Below are positions 6,745 to 61,489 of a stretch of 64,000 bases of DNA, piece after piece; the stretch's first letter is position 1; each line of letters starts with the position of its first letter. Source of the stretch: Pseudomonadota bacterium. Lineage in GTDB: Bacteria > Pseudomonadota > Gammaproteobacteria > Burkholderiales > Burkholderiaceae_C. The stretch spans positions 9,708 through 73,707 of the forward strand of contig JAEWBU010000171.1 in NCBI GenBank assembly GCA_023390985.1, written 5' to 3'. The translations under genes were made by a program, and so were the position numbers. The notes under the pieces are model-generated. The model was not told where the DNA came from. It ran no database searches and saw nothing but the letters and a program-made list of their open reading frames with translations.

Positions 6745-6795
6745 CATCAACACCCACCCGGGGACCACATCCCCGGTTGCCGGGACGTGGTTCCC
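6745..6795 (+). promoter_or_regulatory. Conserved structured 5' leader, copy 1
   Basis: CATCAAC, then stem CCGGGGA/TCCCCGG with alternative pairing GGGACCAC/GTGGTTCCC, then GGAG RBS. Confidence 0.6.
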
Positions 6796-6817
6796 TCCCT
6801 CCCTGGAGATTCCACGC

Positions 6818-7657
6818 ATGACACCCGAACACCTTCGCTCCCTGATGCGCGAGGTGGCCAGAGATCACCTGGCCAAGAACATCCGCAACTACAGCTACTC
6901 CCGCTACGACGGCCTCGCGCACACGAACGCCCTGGGCGGCACGAGCTACCTTCGCCCGACCGAGGGCAAGGTGGTCACCGTGATCGAGGGGCACACGGTC
7001 GTCAAGACCGCTGCGAGCCAGTTCACGCTCGTGAGCAGCGAGCTGCTGAGTCAGCCGGTGCGGATCGGCGACAAGATCGGCTTGACCTTCTACAACCTGC
7101 GCCGCTTCGATGGCACGAACGCGGACGGCACGGACGATCCAGCCGCCGGTGGTGTGAAGTCCTATTCGCTCACCGGCACGCAGACCTACTTCCCCGTGAA
7201 GTGGGAAGGCCGCGAACTCGGCATCAACAACCGATTCCGCGAGGCCTACACCGAGATCAAGAACCCGTACCTGCAGGACCTGATCCGCCAACTGGAGCAG
7301 ATCCCGGTCAACGGCGGTCTGCGCAAGATCGTGAACGTCCTGGTGGACGCGAACGGACGCAACCTGCGCTTCGTGGACCCGGGTGGCTCCTCGGCCGAGA
7401 AGCCCGCCATTCTCGTGGACGTCGAAACGGCCAAGCACAAGGGCCTGGTCGACATCAGCTACGACCGGGGCGCCGACTGGTATTGCGTGCGCCTGGTGCC
7501 CGCCGACGGCACGCCGCCGCAGGACGTCGAACCGGTGTACGTCGACCAACTGGCCGACGTGCTGATCGACGGCATCGACGACGGCGAATGGCGCAAGGCC
7601 ACGGTCACCATGATCAAGGCGGCGCCGAAGGCGCGAGCGCAGCCCGCACTGATCTAA
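6818..7657 (+). CDS. Conserved plasmid hypothetical protein
   Basis: 279 aa, GGAG RBS, strong GC3 codon bias. Confidence 0.8.
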   Translation: MTPEHLRSLMREVARDHLAKNIRNYSYSRYDGLAHTNALGGTSYLRPTEGKVVTVIEGHTVVKTAASQFTLVSSELLSQPVRIGDKIGLTFYNLRRFDGTNADGTDDPAAGGVKSYSLTGTQTYFPVKWEGRELGINNRFREAYTEIKNPYLQDLIRQLEQIPVNGGLRKIVNVLVDANGRNLRFVDPGGSSAEKPAILVDVETAKHKGLVDISYDRGADWYCVRLVPADGTPPQDVEPVYVDQLADVLIDGIDDGEWRKATVTMIKAAPKARAQPALI

Positions 7658-8173
7658 ACGTCAACGCCCGCCGCATCACCTCCAGCTTGTCGCTGGCTGG
7701 CGGGTGCGGCGGCGCGGTGATCCACCTTCCTGTGGGCCTGCCAGCTCAGGCTCTCTGCTTTCCTTCTCCCCCAACCTGCCCCCTCCCGCACGTCTCGACT
7801 CTCGTTCAGAGGGGGTGCGCCATCGCGGCCCGCGCGAACAAAGAGAGCGACTCGCCCTTAAAAAATTGGCGTGCAAAGGCGATTCCTACACATGTCGTCC
7901 GGCTACTGAAGGGAGCCCCCCGAGGAGCGCGGATGTGGAGTCCCAAATGCAATCCCCGAAGCCCCTGTCGTTCTGTCTGCGCGCTGCTCAAGTGCCGGTG
8001 CTGCTCGTTCTTCTGCTCTGGCCTACCTTGGCCTGGTAGCGCGCGTGCGCTGGTATCGCCGACGGAGCTCAGCGCCGCGCGCACGTGTGGCGAACGGGCC
8101 GACCTTGGATACCATGTCCATGAAGCAACCGCCGGCGGTGCGGGCGGTTGCGTCGCCCCCTAAGAGGACTTCA

Positions 8174-8383
8174 ATGTCAATCGACAAGCTGACCGAAACC
8201 GACCACAAGAACATGGACGCCTTTCTCGAACACGTTCTCGAAGACTACAAGGCTGGCGCAATTACCAAAGAGCAGGCCATTGGTGGACTGGCTCATGTGA
8301 TGGCGGCGCTGAACCTCGGCAACGTGGGCGAGGCTCGTAGCTGGTTCCGCGAGGGACGCAAGTACATCCGCGACGCATCCTAG
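8174..8383 (+). CDS. Small hypothetical protein (69 aa)
   Basis: AAGAGGA RBS before ATG 8174; helical, globular-looking sequence. Confidence 0.65.
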   Translation: MSIDKLTETDHKNMDAFLEHVLEDYKAGAITKEQAIGGLAHVMAALNLGNVGEARSWFREGRKYIRDAS

Positions 8384-8386
8384 GCT

Positions 8387-9343
8387 TCACGGACTCGCCT
8401 GTAGCGGGAGCCGTTCAGCTTCGTTCCCCTCAATCCAGCGTTTGCGCCGTACCGTGACGGTAGGCCCCGCCGCCTTCTGCGGTTGAGCGTTGCTGGACGG
8501 CGGCTTTCTAGGGGGATCGGGTGCGGCGCTCTGCTGATTGCGTTTCAGCAGAGGTTCCCGCTCTCTGCGGGCCAGCTGCCGCTGAGTGACAACTGCCTGA
8601 ACGGCGACGCCGTACCGCGCCGCGAAGTCTATAGGGGATGAGTCAGTTCGTTCCAAGGCCTCCAGCAGCTGGCTGCGCTGCACCGGATTCAAGGGCTTCC
8701 CCTTTCGAAGGAGCTTGAGCCAAGGCGCTATCGAAACCGGATCCTCGAGCAGTTCGCGCGCACTCGCGGCTTCGGCCTCGGTGACATGGCCTTCGACCTG
8801 ACCAACCAGGTTGTACCGCGGTGCCCCGGCGACCTGAGCCTCCAGGTATGCGCGACGTCGCCGGAGAGCGCTGCCGGCTGCTTTGATTGAATTCTTCGAG
8901 AACTCTGGGTACAGCTCCGCAAGTACGGCTTTAGCGGTGTCGGCCGTCATTGGGCGAGGTGGCCTTGCGCCGAACGACTCCGGAAATCGGCGGGTGAGTT
9001 CTTCCACTGTCAGATGCAGCGCTCGCGCGCTCTCGACGGCTATCCGACCTTGTGCCCGCGCCTCCATCTCCGGCGAAACCTGGCCCACAACGTTGCCGTC
9101 GAGGTCGTGCAACGGCGCCCCCTGCCGCACTAGTGCTAGACGGTGAGCACTGCGCGCGAAGTGCTTTACGGCACGGTTTACGGAGGCGGCGGTGTACTCG
9201 GGGCAAAGCCTCACTTGCAAGGCGCGACCCACTTCGGCCTGCAGCAGCTTGGGGGGCTTTGCCTGGAACACGGGGAACATGCTCGCGAGCTCCTGAGGCT
9301 TCAGGATCTTCGGACCTGAGTTGCGGTCGTTCGTCATCGTCAT
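8387..9343 (-). CDS. Protein with two tandem ProQ/FinO-like RNA-binding domains
   Basis: Two repeats: FPVFQAKPPKLL..SVNRAVKHFARS..GAPLHDLDGNVVGQVS and FPESFGARPPRPM..SIKAAGSALRRRRAYLEAQVAGAPRYNLVGQVEGHVT. Confidence 0.7.
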   Translation of the reverse strand: MTMTNDRNSGPKILKPQELASMFPVFQAKPPKLLQAEVGRALQVRLCPEYTAASVNRAVKHFARSAHRLALVRQGAPLHDLDGNVVGQVSPEMEARAQGRIAVESARALHLTVEELTRRFPESFGARPPRPMTADTAKAVLAELYPEFSKNSIKAAGSALRRRRAYLEAQVAGAPRYNLVGQVEGHVTEAEAASARELLEDPVSIAPWLKLLRKGKPLNPVQRSQLLEALERTDSSPIDFAARYGVAVQAVVTQRQLARREREPLLKRNQQSAAPDPPRKPPSSNAQPQKAAGPTVTVRRKRWIEGNEAERLPLQASP

Positions 9344-9389
9344 TACATTGATCGCGTCGGGAGCAGCTCGATGGGCTCGCTGATCGGCA

Positions 9390-9731
9390 TTAGGAACTCC
9401 GGCCGGTGCGCGCAGCCCCCGCGGTGCCCGGCGCCGCTCGGTAGGCGTCGTGCTGCGCCTGCAGTTCCGGCCGCGTGCTGCAGGGGAATGGCCAAGTCGG
9501 GTGGGGGACCTTCGCAGGTTGCGCTGCGCCGACTTGTTGCGGCTTCGGCGGACGAGGGGGCAGCGTGGATGCGCTGGGTGCCGGAAAGCAGGAGAGATAA
9601 GCGTCGTGCCAAGCCGCGGCCGCCGAGCTCCCCTGCCCCAGTACATCGTGCCCAGCGCGCACGTCCCAGCCATGAGCGGTCTTCGTGGCCGTCGCGGCGG
9701 GGTGCAGCAGCTGAATCTTCGCCTTGAACAT
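9390..9731 (-). CDS. Hypothetical protein
   Basis: Start overlaps the stop of the upstream gene (TGATG coupling). Confidence 0.5.
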   Translation of the reverse strand: MFKAKIQLLHPAATATKTAHGWDVRAGHDVLGQGSSAAAAWHDAYLSCFPAPSASTLPPRPPKPQQVGAAQPAKVPHPTWPFPCSTRPELQAQHDAYRAAPGTAGAARTGRSS

Positions 9732-10618
9732 CAGAGCAGCGTCCCCTGCGCTGAACCGAGCCCGTCATAGCTCGCTCGCACCGTGCCTTCGCTGAGCGTG
9801 AGGCGGCGGTACTTGTCCAGCTCGCACAGGCAATTCTGGATGTCCATGGCGACCAGCTGACGTTCGTCCCAGATCTCGGTCACGCGCGGCCGCAGCAAGT
9901 CAATGAGCGCGCGCAGCTCGAGCTCGAACTGGACCTGGCTGACGGCCTTGTCCTTGGGCCGCCCGCACAGGCGGTTGATCCCGCGCGCGCTGCCCGGCCC
10001 CACGGGCGCCCAAGTCTCGCGATCAGGCCAGTCTTCCCCTGCTCGCAGGTGCGAGATGTCGGCGACCATCTGGCCAGCCAGGAAGCTGCCGATCCCGTCC
10101 AGAGCGGTGAGGCGGGCCCAGGTAGCGCGCATCGTGGGCTGGTAGATGTCGCCGGCGGCGGCAAGTGCGAGAACCTGCTGCGCGCGGCGCAGCACTGTGG
10201 CGATCTTGGCTTCGCCCGGCGCGCCGGGCACGACGTAGGCCCCCGTAAACACCTTGTGCCCGCCACCAGCGCGCACCTGCAGGCGCCGCTCGGCGTGGAC
10301 CAGGTGCTCCAGTGCAAAGGGCTCGCCCAACGTCACGGCCATGAGCGAGTCGGGCCAGTTGACCATGCGCGCAAGGCAAGCCGCCACCAGCGCGGTGATC
10401 GGGTCAGCGTCAGGCGTGTACCAGCGCTGCAGCAGCGCAACACTCACTCGGTCGTCCATCCTGCGCACGTTGCACCAGCGGTAGTCCCGCAGCAGCGGGT
10501 CGTCGGTCCACGGCTTCGGCTGACCGGCCTCCTTCGCGCGGCGCACGGACTCGCGCTCCCGCATCCAGTGCTCCAGGATGTCCAGCTGCTCGGGATCGAA
10601 GTATGGCGAGGTGCTCAT
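9731..10618 (-). CDS. 5-hmdU DNA kinase helical-domain / aGPT-Pplase1-like protein
   Basis: ERESVRRAKEAGQPKPWTDDPLLRDYRWCNVRRMDDRVS, GIGSFLAGQMVAD, GPGSARGINRL and DIQNCLCELDKY are the family signature. Confidence 0.8.
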   Translation of the reverse strand: MSTSPYFDPEQLDILEHWMRERESVRRAKEAGQPKPWTDDPLLRDYRWCNVRRMDDRVSVALLQRWYTPDADPITALVAACLARMVNWPDSLMAVTLGEPFALEHLVHAERRLQVRAGGGHKVFTGAYVVPGAPGEAKIATVLRRAQQVLALAAAGDIYQPTMRATWARLTALDGIGSFLAGQMVADISHLRAGEDWPDRETWAPVGPGSARGINRLCGRPKDKAVSQVQFELELRALIDLLRPRVTEIWDERQLVAMDIQNCLCELDKYRRLTLSEGTVRASYDGLGSAQGTLL

Positions 10619-10634
10619 GGGCCGCGACGCCCCT

Positions 10635-11900
10635 TCATTCCAGGAATCGCCTGAACCCTGGCATGCGCGAGAACCGCTCTGCCGAGCCGACGCAGTATTC
10701 CCCCATGTGCTCCGTTGCGATCCAAGGGCGGCCGTTGATCTCCGCCGCGTAGGCCGTCGTGCCGTAGCCAGAGAAGAGGTCCGCGACCAACCCATCCTCC
10801 GGGCACAGGTAGCGCACCAGGAAGTCAGCCAACCCGAGAGGCATTGCAGCGCCGTGCACAGGGAGGCATCGCTCACGCGCCTTCTCGCGGGCGCGGCGCA
10901 GATCGCCATCGGCCGCCGACTGGACGAACTGCAGCACATTGCGGGGGATGCGCCCGGGCGTCGGATTCCCGAACGAGCCCTGGCGCAGGCTGTAGGCACC
11001 GTCGTTGCGGCGCGCGTACTTGTCCACTCCGCCCTTCTGGATCAGGCGCAACTGCCGCTCTGTGTGCTCCTGCAGCACGCGGCGGTTGTCCGCGAGGCAC
11101 GCGTGTGGGTCGTTGCAGAAGATGTAGACCGGCTCCCACGCGGCATTCAGCTGCATGCGTTCGACGGAAGCCCAGCGAACCGGCCCAGGCGGCTTCGTGG
11201 GGTTGTGCCAAATGAGCTGGTCCATCACGTGCAGCCCAAGTCGGTCGCACATGGCGATCACCAGGCGCTCACGGTAGGTCGATCTGGCAGGCGAGCCGGG
11301 CTCGAAGATGTCGGCGCCGACGTTCAATGCCAAGGTGCCGCCACGCACGAGATTGCGCGCGATCGGCTCCAACTGTCTGCACAACCAGTCAACGTAGAGC
11401 GAAAGCGGAACATTGCCGTAAGCGCGCGGCTTGGCCAACGGATACGGCGGACTTGTCAGGCAGAGCGTGATGGGCTCGTTGATCTTGCTGAACACGTCCT
11501 CGGCTGCGCCCCAGAGGCACACCCCGAGGTCGGTGGAGTAGGCGACCAGGACCACCTTGGGTTTCTGCGGCGTCAGGGCACGGCGCGCCTTGTCCGTCAG
11601 CTGCCACGCGCCGCGGCGGCCAGGCACCGGCGCAAGCCATCCATGCACCTTCGCCGTCTGCTGGTGCCATCGCACGCGGCGCGCCTCCACGCTGTGCACC
11701 TGTCCGGATCGCCCGATGGGCTGCTTCTGCATGAACTCGTTCAGCGGCTTGCCCGCTTTGCGCGCCACCTCGCGATACAGGCTGTCGTTGGTCAGCGTTC
11801 CATCCGGCGAGCGGTCATAGGCCTTGATGACCTCGCGCAGGCTTTCGGGCAGCGCATCGAGGTCCGGCTCTTCGGCAGTATCGCGGGCAATGGTCGGCAC
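10635..11900 (-). CDS. N4-cytosine/N6-adenine DNA methyltransferase (beta class, SPPY) with N-terminal winged-helix-like segment
   Basis: LCLTSPPYP precedes LVADLFSGYGTT. N-terminal RRVRWHQQT...RRGAWQLT resembles Mrr-N. GTG at 11900 lies just after the upstream stop. Confidence 0.85.
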   Translation of the reverse strand: MPTIARDTAEEPDLDALPESLREVIKAYDRSPDGTLTNDSLYREVARKAGKPLNEFMQKQPIGRSGQVHSVEARRVRWHQQTAKVHGWLAPVPGRRGAWQLTDKARRALTPQKPKVVLVAYSTDLGVCLWGAAEDVFSKINEPITLCLTSPPYPLAKPRAYGNVPLSLYVDWLCRQLEPIARNLVRGGTLALNVGADIFEPGSPARSTYRERLVIAMCDRLGLHVMDQLIWHNPTKPPGPVRWASVERMQLNAAWEPVYIFCNDPHACLADNRRVLQEHTERQLRLIQKGGVDKYARRNDGAYSLRQGSFGNPTPGRIPRNVLQFVQSAADGDLRRAREKARERCLPVHGAAMPLGLADFLVRYLCPEDGLVADLFSGYGTTAYAAEINGRPWIATEHMGEYCVGSAERFSRMPGFRRFLE

Positions 11901-11902
11901 GT

Positions 11903-12529
11903 TCAGTACCCCGTGCGCCAGTCGCGCCCGATCTGCCACCGGCTCTCCCAGTGGCGCAGATAGCCGGTGGCCACTGCCTGGTTGCCCCAGAGGACGATCA
12001 CGTTCTCGCTGTTGGACTTGGCCGCGGCCGCGCTGTAGTTGAAGCTACCGGTTTGGACGGTTAGCTGGTCGCTCACGATCACCTTGTCATGGTGGGCCGC
12101 GAACGCGTCAACCGTGCGGACCGGAACACCGGCGTTGACGAGGGCATTGAGGGCAGCGCGCGCCCTGCCCCCGCCGCTGTCGCCGGTGTTCTGTCGGTTG
12201 TCTGCGACCACCGCCACATCCACGCCGCGCTTCTTGGCCGCGATCAGCGCGGAAACCACCGGGGCGCTCGTCAGGGCGTAAGCCATCATGCGGATCTGCT
12301 TCTTGCTGGTGCCGATCACCTTCAGCACCAACTTCTCGGCGCCGGCGTCGGGAGAAAACGCATATTCCACGGTGCCGGCGCTGGGGGCACTGCCGGTCGG
12401 CGTCAGGGCGGACACGACGGCGTCGGCGATCTGGTTTCCCACGTTCGGGAACGCGTGCGCGCCGCCCCAGAGCAGCCCCGCCACCACTACCAACAACGGG
12501 CGAAAGCCCTTGCGCAAGAACATCTTCAT
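11903..12529 (-). CDS. Exported phospholipase-D-family nuclease (Nuc-like)
   Basis: Signal peptide ending AHA; single HxK(x4)D motif HDKVIVSD..GSFNYS..NSEN; AFSP motif. Confidence 0.85.
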   Translation of the reverse strand: MKMFLRKGFRPLLVVVAGLLWGGAHAFPNVGNQIADAVVSALTPTGSAPSAGTVEYAFSPDAGAEKLVLKVIGTSKKQIRMMAYALTSAPVVSALIAAKKRGVDVAVVADNRQNTGDSGGGRARAALNALVNAGVPVRTVDAFAAHHDKVIVSDQLTVQTGSFNYSAAAAKSNSENVIVLWGNQAVATGYLRHWESRWQIGRDWRTGY

Positions 12530-12721
12530 CCTCCTGTATGCCTAGAGCTTGCCTGAGGTCGGGTGGGATTCAAGGCGGCGAGCCTCCCCCAAGTTTCATC
12601 GCGCGCGTTTCCTTCCAGCCTGCGCCAAACCTCCGAAATCGGCATTTGCCGCCCCGCTGGGAAGCGGACACGCCTTCCAAAATAGGGCAACGGGGATTCA
12701 AGTCCCGCATGGAGTACCTGA

Positions 12722-13339
12722 ATGTCAGCCAGGCCGCCGAGCCGCCCGCCGCCTGTTGTCGAGTGGACCCCCGAGCAGATCGACAAGATCGCATCGGAGA
12801 CGTCCTGCTTCCCACTGGGGCCTGCCTTGGACGATCTGATCGCCCTCCTGCCGGATACGGCCAGCCGGTGCGACCGCACGACGGTGCTGACCTGGGCCTA
12901 CAAGATGAACGGCCTCATCGGGTTCAACCAGGTGTGGCAGCGCATGACCGGCTATCGCGACGAACGTGCCGCGCGCAAGGCCGTCACCGGCGTCCTGCGC
13001 ACGATGGAAGCCCACGCGCTGGTGACGTTGGTTCACTTCGGAGCGGACGCGCCCAAGAAGAGCGCTGACGGGGTGAACGAGGGCACAGCGGTCGAGCTCA
13101 CCACGCGCGGAATGATCTGGCTGGCCCACGCCTGGACCGCACGCAAGCAGGTCGCCAAGAACGTCGGCCTGATCAACGCGCACCAGCAGCTGTGCGAGGA
13201 AGAGGAAGAGGGGAAAGCCCCGCTCCACTACGTCACGCCCGTGGTGGTCAAGGCCGCCCCCGACAAGCAGAAGGCGCCGCCGGTCGCCAACTTCGTCTTC
13301 AACCTGGGCGCGCCTGCGACCAACCGGCGCGAGCACTGA
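12722..13339 (+). CDS. Hypothetical protein
   Basis: 205 aa, GGAG RBS, good codon usage. Confidence 0.7.
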   Translation: MSARPPSRPPPVVEWTPEQIDKIASETSCFPLGPALDDLIALLPDTASRCDRTTVLTWAYKMNGLIGFNQVWQRMTGYRDERAARKAVTGVLRTMEAHALVTLVHFGADAPKKSADGVNEGTAVELTTRGMIWLAHAWTARKQVAKNVGLINAHQQLCEEEEEGKAPLHYVTPVVVKAAPDKQKAPPVANFVFNLGAPATNRREH

Positions 13340-13456
13340 CCAAGCGCTGAATCGCGCGCCAAACGCCGAAAAACCGGGTTTGTCGCGCGATGGTCCGGGC
13401 AGGACCGGCTCCACACTGAGGTTTCTCGATGAGACCGCCGTGGCCGGAGCCACACA

Positions 13457-14866
13457 ATGCCAAACAATCCGCCGACCTCACCCCAGCCGAACGGCGCCAG
13501 CGTGCTGATCGCCGGCGCGCGCGTGTCGCAGGCCCAGCTTCGCGACCGATGGGAGACGCCCGACCTGCAGCAGCTGCTGGTGCAGGCCCGGCAGCAATTC
13601 GGCAACGCCCTATGCTGCTGCCGCCCCGCGCAGCTGAAGCTGCAGATCCGCACGCGCGCGGGGAAGTCGCACCTGGCTGTGTGGCCCGAGCAGGGAGCGC
13701 TGCATGACAGCGAGTGCGCCTTCTTTCGAGACGAGTTGCTCGAGCAGGCTGCCGTCGCTCCGCGCCCTCCCGCCTCGCCGCCGCCCGGCCCTGACACCAC
13801 GGCGCAGCAGCAGCGCATCCGCCTCTTCATGCCGCGCCCAGGCGAGCAAGCACCCGAAGGTGCACAGCTCGTGAGCGTTCGCACCCTCGCCTATCTGCTG
13901 TGGGAAGCCGCCTCCCTATGCCGCTGGCACCCCACCTGGACCAGAGATTGGGGCCGCACCCGCTACCAGCTGCTCAAGGCCGCCGAGGGCTACGAGATCA
14001 ACGGCCGGCCCGGGGAGCGCGTGCTGTTCGTTCCACGCGTGTTCCGCGCCGAAGCGGCGGCAGGCCTGAATCGGGAACACGAAGACTTCGTGCGCGAGAT
14101 GATGACGGCCAACGACGGCCAGCCGCGCATCATGATCGGTCAGGTCCGCAGCTTCGTCCCGGAGCGAGACGGCCAGCCTGGTCGCGTGATGCTGCGCCAC
14201 CTGCGGCACCCCATCGGCCTGCACCGCGCCTGCCACGACTTCATCTCACGCGAGTGCCGCAGTGTCCTCAGCAACACGTCGCTTTCCACTCGACTAGATG
14301 AACGTCGCCCGCAGCCGGGACCTCGCCGGCCGGATGTGGTCGGGATCTTCTCCGTCGAAGCGAATTCGCGCGGCGGCCTGTGGGCTCGCGCCGGCTGGCT
14401 GCTGCCAGTGCATCGCAGCACCTACCTGCCAGCGGCGAACCATGACGCAGTTCTCCTGATCGAAGCCCTGGTCAATGCGCGGCACGCGTTTCAGTACCTC
14501 CTGAGCGAGCGTCAGCCGAGCCAGCGACACGCCAGTGATTGGCTGGTGCGGCACGTGCTCGATCCGCAGGGCAACCCTGTGGCGCGCGCCGCGCTGGAGA
14601 TCCTGGACCCGGGCAGCAGCCCGCAGTTCCTGCAGGCGCGCGCCGCCATCGCGCAGCGCATGGCGCAGCAGGGCATCCCGACCTGGACCTGGGTGCCCAG
14701 CGGACCCTGCGGCGAACGCCAGCTGCCCCCGCTGCCCCCGTCCGACCAGTTGCCGCAGCAGATCGCCCACCAGGCGCTGCAGGCCCTTGAGCAATCGCCC
14801 CATGCCGAGTATCGGTATGGCCCCCTGAGACAGCTTTTCAACGTGGAGAGGAAGACCGCAGCATGA
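13457..14866 (+). CDS. DUF1173-like protein
   Basis: N-terminal CxC...LAVWPEQGALHDSEC pattern; 469 aa. Confidence 0.65.
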   Translation: MPNNPPTSPQPNGASVLIAGARVSQAQLRDRWETPDLQQLLVQARQQFGNALCCCRPAQLKLQIRTRAGKSHLAVWPEQGALHDSECAFFRDELLEQAAVAPRPPASPPPGPDTTAQQQRIRLFMPRPGEQAPEGAQLVSVRTLAYLLWEAASLCRWHPTWTRDWGRTRYQLLKAAEGYEINGRPGERVLFVPRVFRAEAAAGLNREHEDFVREMMTANDGQPRIMIGQVRSFVPERDGQPGRVMLRHLRHPIGLHRACHDFISRECRSVLSNTSLSTRLDERRPQPGPRRPDVVGIFSVEANSRGGLWARAGWLLPVHRSTYLPAANHDAVLLIEALVNARHAFQYLLSERQPSQRHASDWLVRHVLDPQGNPVARAALEILDPGSSPQFLQARAAIAQRMAQQGIPTWTWVPSGPCGERQLPPLPPSDQLPQQIAHQALQALEQSPHAEYRYGPLRQLFNVERKTAA

Positions 14867-15432
14867 ACCAAACCGACAACCGCAAGGCACCCGTTTTTAT
14901 CGGGCCGGACGTGATCGTGGAGGGCACGATTCGCCGCAAGGACGGTGGCGACCCGAACGAGGCCGCGATCATCACCGGCGTCTTCAAGGGCAACATCGAC
15001 TGGCCCGGCATCGTGCACGTGGCCGCAGGCGCCGAGCTCGTCATCGAATCCAAGGTGAGCTGCCGCGAGATCGAGGTGGCCGGCAAGATTTCGGGCAGCG
15101 ACCAGAACGTCATCCTGGAGACCGGCATGCTGCGCATGTGCGACTCCGCCAATGTGGAAGTCGGTCTGCTCAGCCTGGCGCCCGGCGGCCTGGAGCAGGC
15201 GCGCGGCGCCGTGGTCAACGCGAACCTGCGCATGACGCAGGAGCATCCCTACGCCAGCCAGCAGCCGCAGTCGCAGACCAAGCCCGTCCTGGCGGTGGTG
15301 AGCAACGAAGCGCCGGCGGCGAGCAAGGACCAGATCCCCGCATTCCTCACCGCCGGGGCCCAGGCCGCAGGCACGACGCAACAAGGCTCCGGCCAGGCGC
15401 TCTCGCTGGCCACCGGTACCGGCCAGCGCTGA
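14863..15432 (+). CDS. Bactofilin (polymer-forming cytoskeletal) family protein
   Basis: FIGPDVIVEGTI, IITGVFKGNI and EIEVAGKISG beta-helix repeats; ATGA coupling. Confidence 0.7.
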   Translation: MNQTDNRKAPVFIGPDVIVEGTIRRKDGGDPNEAAIITGVFKGNIDWPGIVHVAAGAELVIESKVSCREIEVAGKISGSDQNVILETGMLRMCDSANVEVGLLSLAPGGLEQARGAVVNANLRMTQEHPYASQQPQSQTKPVLAVVSNEAPAASKDQIPAFLTAGAQAAGTTQQGSGQALSLATGTGQR

Positions 15433-15528
15433 TCTCGTCGCGCATCGCGGCCTAAGCGGCCAGGTTGCAGCTCGTTGGGGGCGCGACCTGGCCGCTTCGC
15501 TTTAGTAGCAACAGAAGTGGGGATGCAG

Positions 15529-15569
15529 GACCCGCAAGAGTTGACGCCGAAGCCGCGGTCCGCTGAAAT
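15529..15569 (+). promoter_or_regulatory. GACCCGCAG-box promoter, copy 2
   Basis: GACCCGCAA-GAG-TTGACG-N17-TGAAAT. Confidence 0.65.
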
Positions 15570-15614
15570 GCAGTCTCTTTCGGAGTAATCCGATCGGTCG
15601 CGCCTCAGTGCCGA

Positions 15615-15668
15615 CATTCAACCAACCCGCGCGGGAACCTCTGTTCCCGCCGGGGACAGGGGCCGCGC
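15615..15668 (+). promoter_or_regulatory. Conserved structured 5' leader, copy 2
   Basis: CATTCAAC, stem GCGGGAAC/GTTCCCGC, and loop-side CCTCTGT pairing with downstream ACAGGGG. Confidence 0.55.
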
Positions 15669-15693
15669 TCTTTTCTCTTTAAGGAGAGCTGAG

Positions 15694-16008
15694 ATGTCCC
15701 TGAACCACAATGCCTTCCGTCCCACCTACTCGGAGTTCTACTCCGCGTTTCAGGCCAGCCTGCAGTTCTACTGCAAGGCCCTGACCGAGCGCCCCAACCG
15801 GGCGGTCATCATCGCCGCCGAAACCGGCGGTGACAACGCGGTGCAAGCCCTCTTCGACGCCGTGCTGGATAGCGGCTACCGCAACGTGCTGGTCCAGGCT
15901 CTCAACTCGCCGAACCTGCCGCAGTGGGTGCGCGACAAGCTGAGCACGCTCCTGTACGGGGGCGCGCGCCAGAATGTCTGCGCGCTGCTGCAGAAGCCGC
16001 TGCACTGA
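15694..16008 (+). CDS. Hypothetical protein
   Basis: AAGGAG RBS, 104 aa. Confidence 0.75.
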   Translation: MSLNHNAFRPTYSEFYSAFQASLQFYCKALTERPNRAVIIAAETGGDNAVQALFDAVLDSGYRNVLVQALNSPNLPQWVRDKLSTLLYGGARQNVCALLQKPLH

Positions 16009-16478: not shown

Positions 16479-17008
16479 GCGGCGCCCCCGACCTCGCCTT
16501 CGTCCGCCTGGAAGTCCGGCCGGTGCCCGGCCTCAAGTGCATCGTCATCGCCCCTGTCGGCATGATGCACGCGCTCGCTCACGTGACGACGGCCACGGAT
16601 ACCCCGCAGCCGCTCACCGAGCGCGAACTGGCGATCGCCAATCGGCTGGTGCTGGCCTGGAACATCCACGGCAAGCTCCGCACGACGCTGCGCGAGCTGG
16701 TCGACTGGTGCCGTGAGCACACCTCGCCGCGCGATGCGAGCTCGCCGCACCAACTGCTGGTGAACGCCACTGCCGTCCTCGATGCGGCCGCCGGCGACAG
16801 CCAGCAGCCGGACGAGCCCGACCAAGCCGCGGTGCTGCGGACCCGCTACTCGCAGATCCTGGCCAGAGCGCAGGCCCTTCGCGACTGCAGCTGGCTCGAC
16901 TTCGACCCGGCGGCATCCGCCGAGTTGGCGCAGGCGAAGCAGAACATGCTGGACTTCCTCACCGAGGTCGATCGCGAATCCGCCGCCAGTGCGGCCGTCC
17001 GCGCGTGA
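16475..17008 (+). CDS. Hypothetical protein
   Basis: ATGA and GTGA coupling on both sides. Confidence 0.65.
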   Translation: MSGAPDLAFVRLEVRPVPGLKCIVIAPVGMMHALAHVTTATDTPQPLTERELAIANRLVLAWNIHGKLRTTLRELVDWCREHTSPRDASSPHQLLVNATAVLDAAAGDSQQPDEPDQAAVLRTRYSQILARAQALRDCSWLDFDPAASAELAQAKQNMLDFLTEVDRESAASAAVRA

Positions 17009-20143: not shown

Positions 20144-20184
20144 GACCCGCAGCGCTGGTGCACCGGGAACTGCGAGCGCAAAAT
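20144..20184 (+). promoter_or_regulatory. GACCCGCAG-box promoter, copy 3
   Basis: GACCCGCAG-CGC-TGGTGC-N17-CAAAAT. Confidence 0.55.
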
Positions 20185-20231
20185 CGACCAGGTAACGCCC
20201 CTTGGCGTCTACGGGTGCGCACGTCGCACCC

Positions 20232-20288
20232 CATCAACATCCCCTTGCCGGGCGCCTATGTCGCCCGCTGGGCGCTCTGGTGCTTCCG
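20232..20288 (+). promoter_or_regulatory. Conserved structured 5' leader, copy 3
   Basis: CATCAAC, stem CGGGCG/CGCCCG, alternative downstream GGTGCTTCCG. Confidence 0.5.
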
Positions 20289-20310
20289 CGAGGATCTACC
20301 GGAGAATTCC

Positions 20311-20787
20311 ATGAATCATCCCCAGATCGCCAGAGCGGCGAGGCTGGACACCTCCGCGCTCGGCTCCATGCCGGCGCGCCTGGAGGCAAACACCGATCAG
20401 GAACGCGCACCCATCACCTTCGGCTGGTGGGCCCAGACCACGTGCGAGCGTGTGTCCAAGCACTTCCACCTGGAGACGCTGTACCGGCTCGATCGTGTGC
20501 AGCACGGCTCCCAGGCGATGCTCGTGCCCAGCCAGTTCTATGGCATGGGCGAAGCCGAGGCGCGCCAGTACCTGGCGCCCAGGCAGGCTGCCCTGCTTCC
20601 CAAGCTGCCCACCGGCTATCGCTGGATCGGGCCGCAACTGATCGAGAACGTCCCGGGCCTGCCGCGCACGGTGGCCGGCGCGTTCCCCGAAAACCTGCTG
20701 TCGCCGGCGGCTCGCCAGCGCCTGACTACCGCCAGGAACATCGCGGCCGCGGTGCTGCGCCGTCGTGGCGCACCGGCCTTGGCCTGA
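20311..20787 (+). CDS. Hypothetical protein
   Basis: GGAG RBS before ATG 20311. Confidence 0.7.
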   Translation: MNHPQIARAARLDTSALGSMPARLEANTDQERAPITFGWWAQTTCERVSKHFHLETLYRLDRVQHGSQAMLVPSQFYGMGEAEARQYLAPRQAALLPKLPTGYRWIGPQLIENVPGLPRTVAGAFPENLLSPAARQRLTTARNIAAAVLRRRGAPALA

Positions 20788-20848
20788 CGCTGTGGCCTGC
20801 TTAAGCAACGCAGCCAGCGACGAGCTGCTGGAGCGCGAAGGGTTCGAC

Positions 20849-46342: not shown

Positions 46343-46343
46343 G

Positions 46344-46384: not shown

Positions 46385-46442
46385 CAGGCTGTTTTCGCAT
46401 CTTGCGGACTCGCGCGGGGCTCTTCGCCACCGCGCCTTTCTA

Positions 46443-46488: not shown

Positions 46489-46503
46489 TCTTAGGAGAAC
46501 CCG

Positions 46504-53210: not shown

Positions 53211-53266
53211 CATCGTCAACTCCCTCCAAGGGCACTCCCATGCCCTGAGGGCGGAGCGCTTTTGGG
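53211..53266 (+). promoter_or_regulatory. Conserved structured 5' leader, copy 8
   Basis: AGGGCA/TGCCCT stem versus CCAAGGGCACTCC/GGAGCGCTTTTGG. Confidence 0.55.
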
Positions 53267-53288
53267 ATCACTTCGTTAAGAGGTCATC

Positions 53289-53411
53289 ATGAAAGCTGCT
53301 GTCGTCAGCATCGCCGTCGCCATCGTGGGTTACTTCGCTGTCGGCACCCTGGATACCGGCAAGGCGATCCAGGCCAAGCGCGCTGCAGCCATCGAGGCCG
53401 CTGCGCAGTGA
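53289..53411 (+). CDS. 40-aa membrane/secreted peptide (not in ORF track)
   Basis: MKAAVVSIAVAIVGYFAVGTLDTGKAIQAKRAAAIEAAAQ; AAGAGG RBS; typical codons. Confidence 0.6.
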   Translation: MKAAVVSIAVAIVGYFAVGTLDTGKAIQAKRAAAIEAAAQ

Positions 53412-53606: not shown

Positions 53607-53652
53607 CATCAACCCGACCGGGGCTCCACGCCCCGGAAGGGTTGTGGGCTCC
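53607..53652 (+). promoter_or_regulatory. Conserved structured 5' leader, copy 9
   Basis: CATCAAC, CCGGGGC/GCCCCGG stem versus GGGGCTCCAC/GTGGGCTCC. Confidence 0.6.
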
Positions 53653-53712
53653 AGTCGAAAGCTGGAGGCCTAACGATGCAAGTCATCACCGCCTGCTGGC
53701 CGGAGAAATCCG

Positions 53713-54339
53713 ATGCAGGCCACAGCCGCTAGCGGCGGCTACCAGCTGCACCTTGCCCTCTTCCCGCACCACGTCATCCAGGCTGTGGAGCAGGAGGCAG
53801 AGCGCAAGGCCCAGCGCCGCGAGCACCGCGCCGCGGCAGCCCCCGCGCGACGCCGACCACGCATGTGGTCGGACACGCGGGAGCTGTTCGACGCGCTCGA
53901 TCCCCAGCAGCTGCAAGAGCCGCTGCTGGAGACCGGCGGCACCAACGAACTGGACTGTGACCCTTCCCTGGACCTGTACGAACCGGTAGAGGTCGAAGCC
54001 GCGCAAGCGGTCGAGGACTCCGCCGGATGGTCGGACCAGGCGATGCTGGAGCTGCACGAAGCGGTGCTCATGCACTCGCTGGAGGCGCTCAAGTCTCGGG
54101 GTAACGGTGCAGAGAAGCGCGACGTCCTCAAGTGGATCTTCGCGCCCCAACGCTACGTGGCCACGCTGACGGTTGGCGGCCACGCCGAGGAGGTTCTTCT
54201 GCCTCCTGAACTCACCCCCTTCTCCTTCGAGATGTGCTGTCGCATCTGCAACTACCACTCGGATGCCTTCATGGACGGTCTGAAGTACGTGTTGCGCAAG
54301 AAGGGGCTCGGACACCTCTTTAACGAGATTGCCCAATGA
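53713..54339 (+). CDS. Hypothetical protein
   Basis: GGAG RBS; coupled to the AAA ATPase gene. Confidence 0.7.
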   Translation: MQATAASGGYQLHLALFPHHVIQAVEQEAERKAQRREHRAAAAPARRRPRMWSDTRELFDALDPQQLQEPLLETGGTNELDCDPSLDLYEPVEVEAAQAVEDSAGWSDQAMLELHEAVLMHSLEALKSRGNGAEKRDVLKWIFAPQRYVATLTVGGHAEEVLLPPELTPFSFEMCCRICNYHSDAFMDGLKYVLRKKGLGHLFNEIAQ

Positions 54340-57089: not shown

Positions 57090-57093
57090 TCGC

Positions 57094-57510: not shown

Positions 57511-57558
57511 ATCAACAACAACCCTGCCGGGGGCGATCCCCGGTGGGGGACAGCCCTC
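57511..57558 (+). promoter_or_regulatory. Conserved structured 5' leader, copy 10
   Basis: ATCAAC, CCGGGGG/TCCCCGG stem versus downstream GGACAGCCCTC. Confidence 0.5.
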
Positions 57559-57581
57559 GCGCAGCTCAAAGGGAGACGCGA

Positions 57582-57812
57582 GTGTGCGTTGAACGACTGA
57601 CGCAAGCCGTCAAGAAATTCCAGGACAGCACGGGAGAGGAAGCCCTGCTGGTGGTACTGCACGACGACGAGGACCAGATCATTGGTCTTCACCGGATCGG
57701 ATTCGAGGTGGGCGCAGGCCTGCTCGTTGACGGCCGGCCCGCCGGCTATGAGTTCTACCGCCAGGTGCATGACTTCCACGCCCTGCAAGAGCCGCCCGCG
57801 CTGCTGCACTGA
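57582..57812 (+). CDS. Small hypothetical protein
   Basis: GGGAG RBS, GTG start. Confidence 0.55.
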   Translation: MCVERLTQAVKKFQDSTGEEALLVVLHDDEDQIIGLHRIGFEVGAGLLVDGRPAGYEFYRQVHDFHALQEPPALLH

Positions 57813-57870: not shown

Positions 57871-58201
57871 TTCCCACGAGACACCTGAAAGGGTGCTTTG
57901 TGGAAAGCGCCTTCCCAGTGGGCAGAGGCGCTTTCTGCAGTGCATTTCCCCCGCTCTTCGGAGCGAATGCGGAGCTGGAACACCGCATGCCGCCTCACCG
58001 GCGGTCACTCCAGCCTTCAACCACGGCACCACCCGCACGCCATCTGCGTGAGCGCGGCTGCCAGCCAACTTCCTATTCGGCGCGACAGCCAGTCGTCGCC
58101 GGCTTCCTCTCGGGATCGGCCAATGCGTCTCCTCCCGTCGGGTGGGTGCATTGGCGGGTCTCGCGTGTCTTGACCCATTTCCAATCACTTAGGAGAGTCC
58201 C

Positions 58202-61126
58202 ATGAATATCGAAAGTGCGGCGACGCTCGAAGCCCTGGAGCCCCAGGCGCTGTCGACGTACGTCTTCCGCGAAAAGTACGCTGCGCCGGGGGAGCAGACG
58301 CACCTCGACCTGCATCGACGCGTCGCCAAGGCCCTGGGCCGCGACAGCGCGCAGGAACAGCGCTTCCTGTCCACGCTGGTCAACGGTTTCATCCCTGGTG
58401 GTCGCATCAACGCGTCAGCCGGCTTGGACCGTAAGACCACGCTCGTCAACTGCTTCGTCCAGCCTCTGGCCGATTGCATGACGGGCAACCTCCACGGTAT
58501 CCCCGGCATCATGGATGCTCTGGGCGAGGCCGCTGAAACCATGCGCCAAGGCGGCGGTGTGGGTTACGACTTCAGCCCGCTGCGCCCCTCGCGTGCCCGC
58601 GTCAAGGGCACGGAATCGGAAGCCTCCGGGCCTGTGAGCTACATGCGTGTCTTCGACCGCATGTGCGACACGGTGGAGTCGGCCGGCTCGCGCCGCGGCG
58701 CCCAGATGGGCGTGCTGCGCGTCGACCACCCTGACATCGAGTCCTTCGTGGACGCCAAGAAGGGACCGGACTTCACTGCCATGGGCCTGCCGCAGGCGAT
58801 GGCGGACCAGATGATGCGGATGATCCGCACCAACGACAAGTTCGGCGCGGCCGTTCGCAAGGCGTTCGCGACGCTGAGCAACTTCAACATCTCGGTCGGC
58901 GTGACGGACAAGTTCATGCAGGCCGTGGTCGACGATGCCCAGTTCGACCTGGTGCACGTCGCCGAACCCAGCTTCCCGGCCCTCGGCCAGGTTGCCGATG
59001 CCGACGGCGTGACCCGTTTCATCTACCGCACGGTGCGCGCGCGCGACCTGTGGACCAGGATCCTGCGCAACGCGTACGAGACCGGCGACCCGGGCATCGT
59101 GTTCCTGGACACGATCAATCGTCTGAACAATCTGAGGTACTGCGAAGTCATTGCAGCTACCAACCCGTGCGGGGAGCAGCCGCTTTCGCCGTATGGCTGC
59201 TGCGATGTGGGCCACGCCAGTTTGGTGCGGTTCGTGCGCAATCCTTTCACGCCGGCAGCGCGCTTCGACTGGAGCGCGTTCAAGCAGGTGGTGGCTGGGG
59301 GCGTGGAGCTGCTGGACCGCGTTCTGGACGTGACCAAGTGGCCCTTGCCGCAACAGCAAGCCGAGGCCGAAGCCAAGCGCCGCATCGGGGCGGGGTTCAC
59401 CGGCCTGGGCAGCGCGATGGCGATGCTGGGCCTGCGCTACGGCGCGGTGGAGTCGGCGGCGTTCGCCGCCGAGGTCACTCGCACGATGCGCGACACCGCG
59501 TACCGCAAGTCGGTGGAGCTCGCGCGCGAGTTGGGCGCCTTCCCGCTGTTCGACGCGGACAAGTATCTGGAGGAAGGAACCTTCGCCTCCACGCTTCCCG
59601 AGGACATCAAGGAGGACATCCGGCGGTACGGAATGCGAAACAGCCACACGCTGTCGCTCGCTCCGGTTGGCACCGGGTCATTGGCCTTCGGAGACAACTG
59701 CAGCTCCGGCGTCGAGCCGATCTTCGACCTGAATGCGTTCCGCAACGTGCGGACTGGCAACGGTGACGAGAAGAAGCTGTGGAGCGCTGAGGAGTACGCG
59801 CTGCGCGTGCTCAAGCTGGTCCGCGGCGAAGGAGCCACGGACGATGCGCTGGTGACGGCGCAGGAGCTTTCGGTTGACGATCATCTGCGCGTGCTCAACG
59901 CGGTCGCGCCGTACATCGACGCCGCCGTGAGCAAAACGGTGAACGCGCCGCGCGATTACCCGTTCGAGGCCTTCCAGGAGACCTACATGAACGCCTGGCG
60001 CAGCGGCCTGAAAGGGATCACCATCTACAGGCCCAACGACATGCTGGGCTCGATTTTGGTTTCGGCCGAGGAGCAACGCCAGAAAGAACTGCTCGCCGCC
60101 GGCGAGACCGCCTCCAACGATGACCTGGACCGCCGGGTGACGCTGAAGGACGCGCCGAACCTGCTCACGCAGATGAAGTGGCCGAGCCGGCCCGACGTGG
60201 CCGCCGAGGGCAAGACCTACCCGGTCAAGCACCGCAACGGGAACTTCGCCGTGGTGGTCAACCACTGGGTCAACGGAAGCCAGCATCCGCTGGAGGTGTA
60301 CATCGCAGGAAACGAAGCTCCGCGCGGACTCGGGGCCATCGCCAAGAGCCTGAGCGTGGACATGCGCACCGACGACGCAGCGTTCCTGGAGATGAAGCTG
60401 GATTCGCTGCTCAATACCAAGGGCGAGGACGCGTTCGAGATGCGTGACCCGGCCACGGGCCAAACGGTGCTGATGCCGTCCCTGACGGCGGGCTTCGCGA
60501 AGGTGGTGAAGCACCGTCTTGCCGAGTTGGGGGTGCTGGGCGATCAGGCCAGCTCCCCGATGATCGATGCGCTGTTCTCGCGACGCGAGCCGAAGACCGG
60601 CGCCGACGGCGCGATCGGCTGGCACGTGGACATCAACAACCCGGTGACGGGCGACGACTTCCTGCTGCACACCAAGGAGATAAAGCTGCCCGATGGGTCG
60701 ATCCGCCCCTACTCGGTGTGGCTCTCGGGCCACTACCCGAAGGTGCTTGACGGCCTGATGAAGGTGCTGTCTATCGACCTGCGCATCAGCGACCCGATGT
60801 GGGCCGTGATGAAGCTGCGCAAGCTACTGAGCTTCGGCGAGGTGCGCGGCGACTTCATGGCACCGGTCCCCGGCGAGCAGCGCCAGGCCAACTACCCGAG
60901 CACGGTGGCCTACATGGCTGCGGTGCTCCTGGCCCGGATGGAAAAGCTCGGGCTGGTGCGTGGTGAGGCCGAAGCGGCGGCATCCGACGAGGGCGCTCCG
61001 CTGCGCGGGGGCAACCTGCTGGCCGGCTCCGGAAAGCAGTGCCCCAGCTGCCACGCCATGACCTTGCACAAGGTCAGCGGCTGCGAAGAGTGCAGTAGCT
61101 GCGGGTACACCGGCAGCTGCGGCTGA
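58202..61126 (+). CDS. nrdJ: Class II (adenosylcobalamin-dependent) ribonucleotide reductase with C-terminal Zn-ribbon
   Basis: GFIPGGRI, NCFV, GGGVGYDFS, RRGAQM, TNPCGEQPL, APVGT, KGITIYRP, terminal CPSC..CSSCGYTGSCG. Confidence 0.92.
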   Translation: MNIESAATLEALEPQALSTYVFREKYAAPGEQTHLDLHRRVAKALGRDSAQEQRFLSTLVNGFIPGGRINASAGLDRKTTLVNCFVQPLADCMTGNLHGIPGIMDALGEAAETMRQGGGVGYDFSPLRPSRARVKGTESEASGPVSYMRVFDRMCDTVESAGSRRGAQMGVLRVDHPDIESFVDAKKGPDFTAMGLPQAMADQMMRMIRTNDKFGAAVRKAFATLSNFNISVGVTDKFMQAVVDDAQFDLVHVAEPSFPALGQVADADGVTRFIYRTVRARDLWTRILRNAYETGDPGIVFLDTINRLNNLRYCEVIAATNPCGEQPLSPYGCCDVGHASLVRFVRNPFTPAARFDWSAFKQVVAGGVELLDRVLDVTKWPLPQQQAEAEAKRRIGAGFTGLGSAMAMLGLRYGAVESAAFAAEVTRTMRDTAYRKSVELARELGAFPLFDADKYLEEGTFASTLPEDIKEDIRRYGMRNSHTLSLAPVGTGSLAFGDNCSSGVEPIFDLNAFRNVRTGNGDEKKLWSAEEYALRVLKLVRGEGATDDALVTAQELSVDDHLRVLNAVAPYIDAAVSKTVNAPRDYPFEAFQETYMNAWRSGLKGITIYRPNDMLGSILVSAEEQRQKELLAAGETASNDDLDRRVTLKDAPNLLTQMKWPSRPDVAAEGKTYPVKHRNGNFAVVVNHWVNGSQHPLEVYIAGNEAPRGLGAIAKSLSVDMRTDDAAFLEMKLDSLLNTKGEDAFEMRDPATGQTVLMPSLTAGFAKVVKHRLAELGVLGDQASSPMIDALFSRREPKTGADGAIGWHVDINNPVTGDDFLLHTKEIKLPDGSIRPYSVWLSGHYPKVLDGLMKVLSIDLRISDPMWAVMKLRKLLSFGEVRGDFMAPVPGEQRQANYPSTVAYMAAVLLARMEKLGLVRGEAEAAASDEGAPLRGGNLLAGSGKQCPSCHAMTLHKVSGCEECSSCGYTGSCG

Positions 61127-61346
61127 TGTGAACCAGGTGCGTTGCTTCGGCGCGCACCAACAGGCTCCCTCCGAGAGGAGGGGCCTGCCTGGAGGGTTGT
61201 GCATCAGCTCTCCAGACAGGTCGCCAGCGCCCCCACGGGGCGCCTGCATCGAATCGGCGCGCCCCTCGCACATGTCGGCCTCGGCTGCCCTTTCAGGCCC
61301 ATCCGATCGCGGGCAAGGCTGCGGGCGTGTGTTGGCAAGAAGGCCA

Positions 61347-61387
61347 GACCCTCAGCAGTTGCCAGCTGCAGCAGCCCGGAATAGAGT
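61347..61387 (+). promoter_or_regulatory. GACCCGCAG-box promoter, copy 10
   Basis: GACCCTCAG-CAG-TTGCCA-N17-TAGAGT. Confidence 0.6.
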
Positions 61388-61432
61388 CGAATCGCTCGGA
61401 CTACCTCCGATCGGCAGGCCTTCATGTGCCTG

Positions 61433-61489
61433 CATTCAACCCAACCCACACGGGAACCTTCGTTCCCGTAGGGGGCGTGGGTTCCCGTG
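61433..61489 (+). promoter_or_regulatory. Conserved structured 5' leader, copy 11
   Basis: CATTCAAC, ACGGGAAC/GTTCCCGT stem versus CACGGGAACC/GGTTCCCGTG. Confidence 0.65.

Follow-up and report, generated by a model that had tools for sequence, protein, structure and literature searches.

Eleven ribosome-binding sites (RBS) in the DNA analysed here, a stretch of 64,000 nucleotides (nt) from a Burkholderiales bacterium (contig JAEWBU010000171.1, assembly GCA_023390985.1; "the window" in the following), are preceded by leaders which have one layout and hardly any sequence in common (at most 12 identical bases, median 7). What do these leaders do, and where else do they occur? A preliminary description of the window had listed the eleven copies as an RNA leader with two alternative pairings. 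All of them are present on the + strand, and each ends at a Shine-Dalgarno sequence (SD) and a start codon. From 5' to 3', a copy consists of a G-poor linker ending in (A)ACCC (segment A), a GGG arm with its loop (B), a CCC arm (B'), GGG (A'), and a complement of B and its loop (C). We call the element the switch leader. The copies are given below with the E values obtained with R1, a covariance model whose seed comprised the leaders of DUF3150 genes alone, including copy 61433. Open reading frames (ORF) are given with their length in amino acids (aa) and their start position, and promoter-first copies are the first element in their transcript.

6745-6820, +: switch leader, promoter-first, before a 279-aa ORF without assigned function (start 6818); E 2.8e-4
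15615-15696, +: switch leader, promoter-first, before a 104-aa ORF (15694), with a DpdA-like gene farther downstream; E 3.2e-7
20232-20313, +: switch leader, promoter-first, before a 158-aa ORF (20311); weakest R1 match, E 0.11
27549-27623, +: switch leader, promoter-first, before radC (27621-28085); E 1.5e-6
28136-28213, +: switch leader, about 54 nt past the radC stop codon, before a DndC/PAPS-reductase-like gene (28211); E 7e-4
43348-43423, +: switch leader, promoter-first, before the PRTRC ParB gene; E 1.1e-8; B at 43364, B' 43378, A' 43385, C 43389, SD 43412, start 43421
46443-46506, +: switch leader, promoter-first, before the gene of PRTRC protein F (46504); E 1.5e-7
53211-53291, +: divergent copy, located ahead of a hydrophobic peptide of 40 aa (53289), with a weak third helix (P3, see below; C:SD -5.3 kcal/mol, rank 10 of 11); no R1 match
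53607-53678, +: switch leader before an 18-codon ORF (53676-53732); E 3e-5
57511-57584, +: intercistronic switch leader, about 10 nt past the ssb stop codon, before a 76-aa ORF (GTG start, 57582); E 0.005
61433-61511, +: switch leader, promoter-first, before the DUF3150 gene; seed row of the DUF3150 leader alignment; B at 61452, B' 61465, A' 61471, C 61476, SD 61500, start 61509

The ten best R1 matches in the window are ten of the eleven copies; 53211 was missed. A pattern search of the window, with a pattern written after the copies had been inspected, gave nine matches on the + strand and one on the - strand; 200 shuffled versions yielded 0.22 matches on average and never more than 2. When R1 was applied to the whole genome (150 of 780 candidates scored), all 12 matches at E <= 1 were located on the source contig of the window, C224 (10), or on contig C186 (2), and an extra copy just beyond the window precedes a primase gene.

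Folding revealed a helix that was absent from the preliminary description, as C pairs with the SD-AUG region of its own copy. Three helices can be distinguished. P1 combines A:A' and B:B'. P2 pairs B and its loop with C, encloses a small B':A' hairpin and leaves the SD free. P3 places C on the SD-AUG region and hides the SD; it coexists with P1, and P2 is mutually exclusive with both. As A, B, B', and A' swap partners between these states, their CCC and GGG blocks are invariant. The P1 arms are copy-specific, B with its loop resembles the SD spacer of its own copy, and the linker is variable except for the final AACCC.

The pairing is fitted within each copy. Among the 11 window copies, the mean energy of B:C is -16.7 kcal/mol compared with -11.9 for mismatched copies, and that of C:SD is -13.4 compared with -9.6 (permutation p <= 1e-5 for both). 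In 38 copies of other replicons, the own and mismatched values are -15.4 and -9.3 kcal/mol for B:C and -14.1 and -8.8 kcal/mol for C:SD; these copies were 44 leaders chosen by eye for folds showing P1 + P3, minus three without the core and three that were duplicated or mis-parsed. Covariation, which the preliminary description had proposed to look for by aligning the copies, was found in 34 orthologous DUF3150 leaders. P2 is paired in 87.5% of cells with two-sided changes in six of nine pairs, including three positions that form the unpaired loop in P1. P3 is paired in 76.6% with two-sided changes in nine of ten pairs, although indels degrade the alignment here. None of 500 shuffles reaches the observed number of paired cells for P2 or P3, and both helices beat slid controls. 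In contrast, A:A' shows no two-sided change in these leaders. Of these tests, that of P3 within the window is the least circular because its copies were chosen on P1 and P2.

Contigs were scanned with a DUF3150 alignment; a scan with the single ParB protein gave no matches. The 34 leaders derive from 56 descriptor matches ahead of DUF3150 genes, reduced to 44 distinct rows, minus three false starts, five near-duplicates, and three uncertain starts, plus the window copy. The larger sets comprise 257 descriptor matches, 181 copies after removal of near-duplicates, and 127 non-redundant strict copies. As the loose descriptor is unspecific in DNA of 69% GC, claims were based on strict filters and on the covariance model.

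A further leader in the window has folds that hide and free the SD, and it is probably a degenerate twelfth copy.

58110-58204, +: degenerate copy with a long P2, before the gene of a B12-dependent ribonucleotide reductase (58202)

R1 gives no match here in the window scan, and a similar leader precedes the orthologous ribonucleotide reductase gene in Polaromonas. Two weak look-alikes were excluded from the count, namely a descriptor match at 12640-12724 (+) before an ORF at 12722 and a stretch at 62577-62634 (+) with an R1 E value of 1.4. The 18-codon ORF behind copy 53607 (53676-53732, +) overlaps the SD of a 208-aa gene (53713) at the head of the AAA/SSB operon, an arrangement resembling a relay of two cistrons. 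In a Hydrogenophaga plasmid locus (L007), the same position is occupied by an 18-codon ORF whose residues are similar.

The three helices bear directly on the structural class. The preliminary description had offered a pseudoknot as one reading, and a STAXI-like H-type fold would have A:A' crossing B:C. Both of these helices are present in the sequence, and covariation cannot exclude their simultaneous formation since A:A' never varies on both sides. However, the same G residues of B pair with either B' or C, and no more than 0-1 nt separate A' from the first paired base of C in 69 of 127 copies; in the 11 window copies, this linker is always 0-3 nt long. As a linker of 0-1 nt is too short to span the A:A' helix, and as such a fold assigns no role to B' despite the copy-specific P1 arms and ignores P3, we consider it highly improbable.

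A DNA-level function, either as a single-stranded structure in transfer or as a Bet/Exo recombination repeat similar to rptI-IV of IncC, would be in line with the occurrence of the element on conjugative elements and with the near-duplication of some IncC copies. Palindrome-bearing intergenic repeats of IncC serve as repair substrates, according to PMC7498323. Against this function, the window copies have at most 12 identical bases in common, 249 of 257 descriptor matches (the search was confined to sites ahead of an SD) share the strand of their anchor gene, and G-U pairs account for 185 of 1295 pairs in P2 and 134 of 1345 in P3. The single-stranded DNA element of the preliminary description does not agree with a third helix aimed at the SD-AUG region either, which leaves this reading exceedingly improbable. 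Folding energies of the sense and antisense strands give no separation, the sense strand being favoured in 7 of 11 window copies.

How could the helices follow each other on a growing transcript? Equilibrium folds calculated for the 127 copies proceed from A:B to B:B', P1, P2, and finally P1 + P3. P2 is dominant before the SD appears in 100 of 127 copies, and B:B' is back in the complete leader in 109. On average, 10.1 kcal/mol are needed to open the RBS. This value is 6.2 kcal/mol when A is blocked, 10.4 when A and B are blocked, and 10.0 when B' is blocked; blocking A lowers the cost by more than 2 kcal/mol in 90 copies. Because the cost falls with A blocked and is unchanged with A + B or B' blocked, A is a lock and B an anti-anti-SD. 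In most window copies, a barrier of about 20 kcal/mol lies between P1 and P2, which drops to 12-14 kcal/mol if A is left out. The three helices, their covariation, the order of their energies, the role of A as a lock, and the distribution described below are computed results, and a translational switch fits them better than a pseudoknot, a terminator, or a single-stranded DNA element.

We therefore propose, with a probability of roughly 60%, that each copy is a cis-acting translational switch which is OFF by default, is captured in P2 on nascent RNA, is locked by A, and damps and times expression after an activator has fired. In such a switch, P1 + P3 would be the OFF state and P2 with its free SD the ON state. 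The energies appear tuned so that P2 is preferred after C has been made and before the SD emerges, and P1 + P3 in the finished leader. Ribosomes should then initiate for the most part on nascent RNA which attains P2 early enough, and completed or idle mRNA would be shut. Pairing of A with A' would set how often the ON state occurs, which may be captured when this pairing is delayed or opened. At intercistronic copies, a ribosome terminating just upstream could cover A and thereby open the next gene by coupling. At promoter-first copies, the unpaired G-poor linker between the upstream hairpin and A is a likely handle, possibly as a standby site for the 30S subunit or as a protein site; other routes at these copies may be a trans factor or pausing of the polymerase in the U-rich tract. 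The element would damp and time the synthesis of costly DNA-acting and host-defence-evasion proteins once an activator of the FlhDC type fires the promoters, thus forming a second layer beneath an activator-type promoter.

Several observations weigh against this proposal. The OFF state is favoured at equilibrium even with A blocked; hence, the model rests on kinetics, on which the search for barrier paths, excluding pseudoknotted intermediates, sets bounds. Blocking A lowers the RBS cost by more than 2 kcal/mol in just 4 of 11 window copies and raises it in two. Coupling to an upstream ribosome fits at most one window copy (57511), so promoter-first copies need another route. The sets of 127, 181, and 34 copies were chosen by pairing thresholds and the window set on P1 and P2, which introduces a selection bias; together with the relatedness of the sequences, it causes the shuffle controls to overstate significance. 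Elsewhere in this GC-rich genome, 193 of 21951 candidate starts give a match with the loose descriptor as well. Finally, P2 formation in cells, its trigger, and its purpose are what we infer from the models, and the FlhC-like fragment that could represent the activator (see below) has no Pfam match. For positions 43100-46700, three public RNA runs had small shares of matching words, and their contigs did not extend over the leaders.

Upstream coupling can be judged from the spacing of the copies. The gap between the preceding stop codon and A is below 30 nt in 37 of 181 copies and zero in just four. A UAA ahead of the CCC occurs in 33 of 127 copies, where it is mostly part of the motif. Seven of the 11 copies in the window head their transcript, which shows that upstream-gene coupling is not the sole trigger.

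If P1 and P3 alone mattered, the element would be a static damper, and P2 a by-product of B and the SD spacer having arisen from one duplicated sequence. In most copies, no full-length fold is indeed more stable than P1 + P3, and the likeness of B and its loop to the SD spacer would be accounted for. Yet without any formation of P2 there would be no need for P1, and the loop positions that are unpaired in P1 covary with C across orthologues with 28-70% protein identity. We regard a static damper as very improbable.

Alternatively, P2 and the U-rich tract behind it could form an intrinsic terminator or pause hairpin with P1 as its antiterminator. The first positions of the 10 nt past P2 contain about 45% U, and at least six U in 8 nt are found in 36 of 181 copies. 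In the window, copy 43348 alone has a run of six U; the other ten copies lack one, and 79 of 181 copies have at most two U. A terminator would leave the copy-specific P3 pairing unexplained, and bet of SXT is highly transcribed yet attenuated at translation, according to a review (PMC4542580). Attenuation, which the preliminary description had named as an option, is thus not borne out in the form of a general terminator, and a terminator is quite improbable as the function of P2. A pausing role of P2 and its U-tract is compatible with a switch captured on nascent RNA.

The preliminary description had placed seven of the eleven copies 85-100 bp downstream of a promoter. This holds with distances of 85-99 nt; four promoters carry the exact box GACCCGCAG and three carry variants differing in one or two letters. 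The exact box occurs six times compared with 1.6 expected. It adjoins a weak -35 element on the upstream side of the latter, followed by a TAGAAT-like -10 element. The promoters are as follows.

6660-6705, +: GACCCGCAG-box promoter of copy 6745, with box, weak -35, and TAGAAT-like -10
15529-15574, +: variant box promoter of copy 15615
20144-20189, +: box promoter of copy 20232
27464-27509, +: box promoter of copy 27549
43257-43302, +: box promoter of copy 43348, followed by two hairpins and a 12-nt unpaired linker ahead of segment A
46344-46389, +: variant box promoter of copy 46443, immediately 3' of a terminator
61347-61392, +: variant box promoter of copy 61433

The box position fits class II activation, as at SetCD sites, where the box likewise lies next to the -35 element (PMC4344509); an activator of the FlhDC type is predicted from this likeness. 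The conformational switch for translational control that was first suspected, as a second regulatory layer under a putative activator-type promoter, is supported. Upstream of descriptor matches in related Comamonadaceae loci, a GACCCGCAG-like pattern was found in 0 of 77 cases; the box may be confined to this plasmid, unless the search pattern was too tight. The exact sites at 26530 and 57830 have no standard copy inside 100 nt. Long hairpin-rich untranslated stretches follow the box promoters at 26530 and 52854 (both +): about 200 nt to a start codon without a standard switch in the former, and about 350 nt to copy 53211 in the latter. These transcripts are possible non-coding RNAs.

Each of the seven promoter-first untranslated regions (UTRs) folds as two hairpins and an unpaired linker of 11-15 nt that ends in segment A, and no short upstream ORF was seen in them by eye. 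Such a conserved unpaired linker beside A, in copies that are mostly promoter-first, would also suit a dedicated trans factor (small RNA, protein, or metabolite) that flips the same three helices at the linker, at A, or at an upstream module and so acts on the whole gene set together. The differing upstream modules of other elements, the radC RNA and a small pseudoknot in IncC and SXT, point in the same direction. On the other hand, beyond the conjugation core and primase, no gene is common to SXT, IncC, pCAR1, R27, pMOL28, and this genome (blastp, E <= 1e-3), and the linker sequence is variable apart from its last AACCC. We consider control by a dedicated trans factor unlikely; a host-encoded factor or a small RNA would be compatible with these findings. 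A candidate partner named in the preliminary description is the tandem ProQ/FinO protein of the window, whose link to the switch is that of a candidate only.

8387-9673, -: tandem ProQ/FinO-domain gene

The plasmid ProQ was rejected as a general partner, as none was found in five of five other element-bearing plasmids.

Where else does the switch leader occur? Whole records were searched with R1 at E <= 0.05; the DUF3150 leaders of IncC and Polaromonas belong to its seed. Matches were obtained in seven of nine MOBH plasmids, with 6-25 each, and in none of five non-MOBH plasmids (F, R64, R46, pWW0, and R751). Polaromonas plasmid 1 has 25 matches (one partial and reverse), and the IncC plasmid pKAZ3 has 24, all inside 65.7-92.8 kb. 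There are ten in pMOL28, eight each in IncHI2 R478 and pCAR1, seven in R27 (one partial), and six in pHG1; the MOBH plasmids Rts1 and pP50213-1 gave none. All seven matches on an E. coli chromosome lie in an operon of the SXT/R391 type, and in the SXT operon 13 genes were examined, of which 9 are preceded by a leader. Matches occur in 14 of 150 other genomes of the family, and all five multi-match genomes checked carry a TraI_2 relaxase on the same contig. Among 42 DUF3150 loci without a descriptor match, about 33 have no leader by eye and are mostly distant relatives.

Taken with the pairing data, this distribution reveals a real and conserved family, not catalogued so far, of leaders that would act as translational switches gene by gene on MOBH conjugative elements, and which the window extends to PRTRC plasmids of the Burkholderiales. 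The link to mobile elements drawn in the preliminary description is hence well founded. The Providencia plasmid pP50213-1 (L021, genes 5621-15517), which is MOBH and lacks the switch, carries another kind of repeated leader ahead of this set of genes, consisting of a hairpin, an AT-rich TTTAAATCTATT-like stretch, and an SD. In operon-first copies of IncC and SXT, a small H-type pseudoknot is located 5' of the switch that is not seen in the window. It has a covarying stem of 4-5 bp, the loop UAGCU(G/A)G, an A-rich linker, and (C/U)AGC pairing with the loop; a compensatory change is present in SXT. Its shape is, we presume, reminiscent of preQ1-I aptamers. Rfam searches of the IncC and SXT regions found no families at E <= 1. 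The pseudoknots are located at these positions.

L019:9021, 10064, 14899, 18731, 23145, 26927 and L164:9810: small pseudoknot, IncC
L123:10955: small pseudoknot, SXT
L040:13179, L085:11737, L137:456: small pseudoknot

Is the element already known? No Rfam family matches any window copy at E <= 5, as the search envisaged in the preliminary description has now established, and the switch leader thus represents an RNA family absent from Rfam. The primary report of a bet attenuator in SXT/R391 integrative and conjugative elements (ICEs) is said to be that of Garriss et al. 2013. According to a review, SXT bet is highly transcribed, but a strong attenuator of translation located upstream of it impedes its expression; IncA/C possesses this attenuator too (PMC4542580). 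R1 matches the leader directly before bet in IncC (E 2.1e-8) and SXT (E 1.3e-4), with the same three helices. Position and context agree as well, since the bet leader belongs to operons of FlhDC-like class II activators with AAA, SSB, DUF3150, VWA, RadC, and primase genes. The window copies are thus, judging from their sequences, homologues of the bet attenuator leader, and they are predicted to sequester the RBS as well by means of a copy-specific, covarying P3 and an opening cost of about 10 kcal/mol. The review, in the part available, has a single attenuator and does not mention the ON helix P2 or the lock A, whereas we find a family (9 in the SXT operon, 24 in IncC, and 11-12 in the window).

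The leader before the IncC AAA gene is likewise a copy of the switch element. For this gene, vcrx089, Roy et al. (2020; PMC7498323) predicted a structure that sequesters the RBS and described the repeats rptI-IV; the accessible part of that paper treats one structure and DNA repair repeats without a family or an alternative fold.

The preliminary description had also considered the radC, DUF3577, and STAXI motifs. It was right that one copy (27549) precedes radC. Membership in the radC RNA family (RF01754) does not hold: none exceeds the 40-bit gathering cut-off in the whole genome, and the best score, 24.8 bits, is not at a copy. The core hairpins of the radC RNA are replaced by two unrelated hairpins in the window UTRs. 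A connection with this RNA nevertheless exists. In one related genome (G105, loci L196-L204), nine radC RNAs occur in two MOBH ICE regions; a full switch with SD follows all seven that were inspected, directly or past a pseudoknot-like unit, and the core hairpins are present in these copies. Many rows of the published alignment, as far as it was available, end in the first hairpin of the switch element (Weinberg et al. 2010, PMC2864571), and the RF01754 model stops ahead of C and the SD. Apart from this adjacent radC RNA, no Rfam families were found in 18 relative loci. STAXI (RF01728) similarly occurs on mobile DNA, in the vicinity of genes such as ssb and those for integrase and antirestriction. 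It differs as a pseudoknot in 2-3 tandem repeats with UUCG loops; the switch element is single per gene and linked to an SD. The DUF3577 RNA motif is, we assume, listed in Rfam. Its name is absent from the available main text of PMC5737381, and the available part of PMC3118119 holds nothing relevant to the switch leader.

Competition between anti-SD and anti-anti-SD pairing with a transient or ribosome-gated open state is familiar from the MS2 maturation leader, hok/sok, and the ermC/cat attenuators. The switch element differs from these in that no leader peptide or antisense RNA was found at promoter-first copies and in that many diverged copies exist per replicon, each fitted to its own SD spacer. 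Literature listings and the opening parts of abstracts gave no account of a multicopy family, a three-helix switch, or a P2 state. Single copies are already in print because the SXT bet leader and the 3' end of the radC RNA match the element; for the family and the three-helix switch, no description was found in these partial sources.

MOBH elements such as IncC, IncHI, and SXT/R391 are major carriers of drug resistance. If each gene indeed has its own switch, this would explain high transcription with poor translation as well as the polarity of operon deletions, and the orphan radC RNA would gain the expression platform that it has lacked. Going further, the switch could be a shared, interchangeable expression platform of MOBH elements onto which sensors have been grafted, with one signal unlocking A across dozens of genes. 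Although rather unlikely on the present data, such an arrangement would make the radC RNA (ICEclc-like), the A-rich pseudoknot (IncC/SXT), and the double hairpin (PRTRC plasmids) its sensor modules. A signal tied to transfer or entry into a new host would then turn on the translation of anti-defence and DNA-repair genes, in an undescribed post-transcriptional regulon possibly equipped with orphan-riboswitch sensors. IncC genes in operons bearing these leaders are reported to evade restriction and CRISPR defence (PMC7498323).

The source contig C224 measures 97 kb and has 66% GC compared with about 69% in most other large contigs. It encodes trfA, parA/parB, a PRTRC cassette, radC, ssb, an AAA ATPase, DUF3150, the B12-dependent ribonucleotide reductase, and several DNA-modification-like genes; a VWA gene, primase, traD, and a TraI_2/MobH relaxase flank the window. 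Its nearest plasmid relatives are megaplasmids of Hydrogenophaga, Polaromonas, and Cupriavidus, e.g., pMOL28. The relaxase, the gene content, and these relatives identify C224 as a conjugative plasmid or ICE of the MOBH type from a host in the Burkholderiales. An FlhC-like protein just outside the window shares 32% identity with a protein annotated as FlhC-family (by blast only). Contigs C186 and C335 of the same genome (loci L004-L006) have additional switch copies and box promoters, which suggests that they may belong to the same or a sister plasmid.

The DNA-modification-like cluster of the window comprises 5863-6648, 9734-10999 (-), 17005-18117, 20765-21859, and 28211-29965, with Mom, a 5-hmdU kinase helical domain, a DpdA-like gene, and two PAPS-reductase/DndC-like genes. 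A small-RNA-like unit at 2763-2836 (+) consists of a CUCCCU anti-SD loop and a terminator; it matches Rfam anti-hemB with 37.2 bits, under the cut-off of 49.5.

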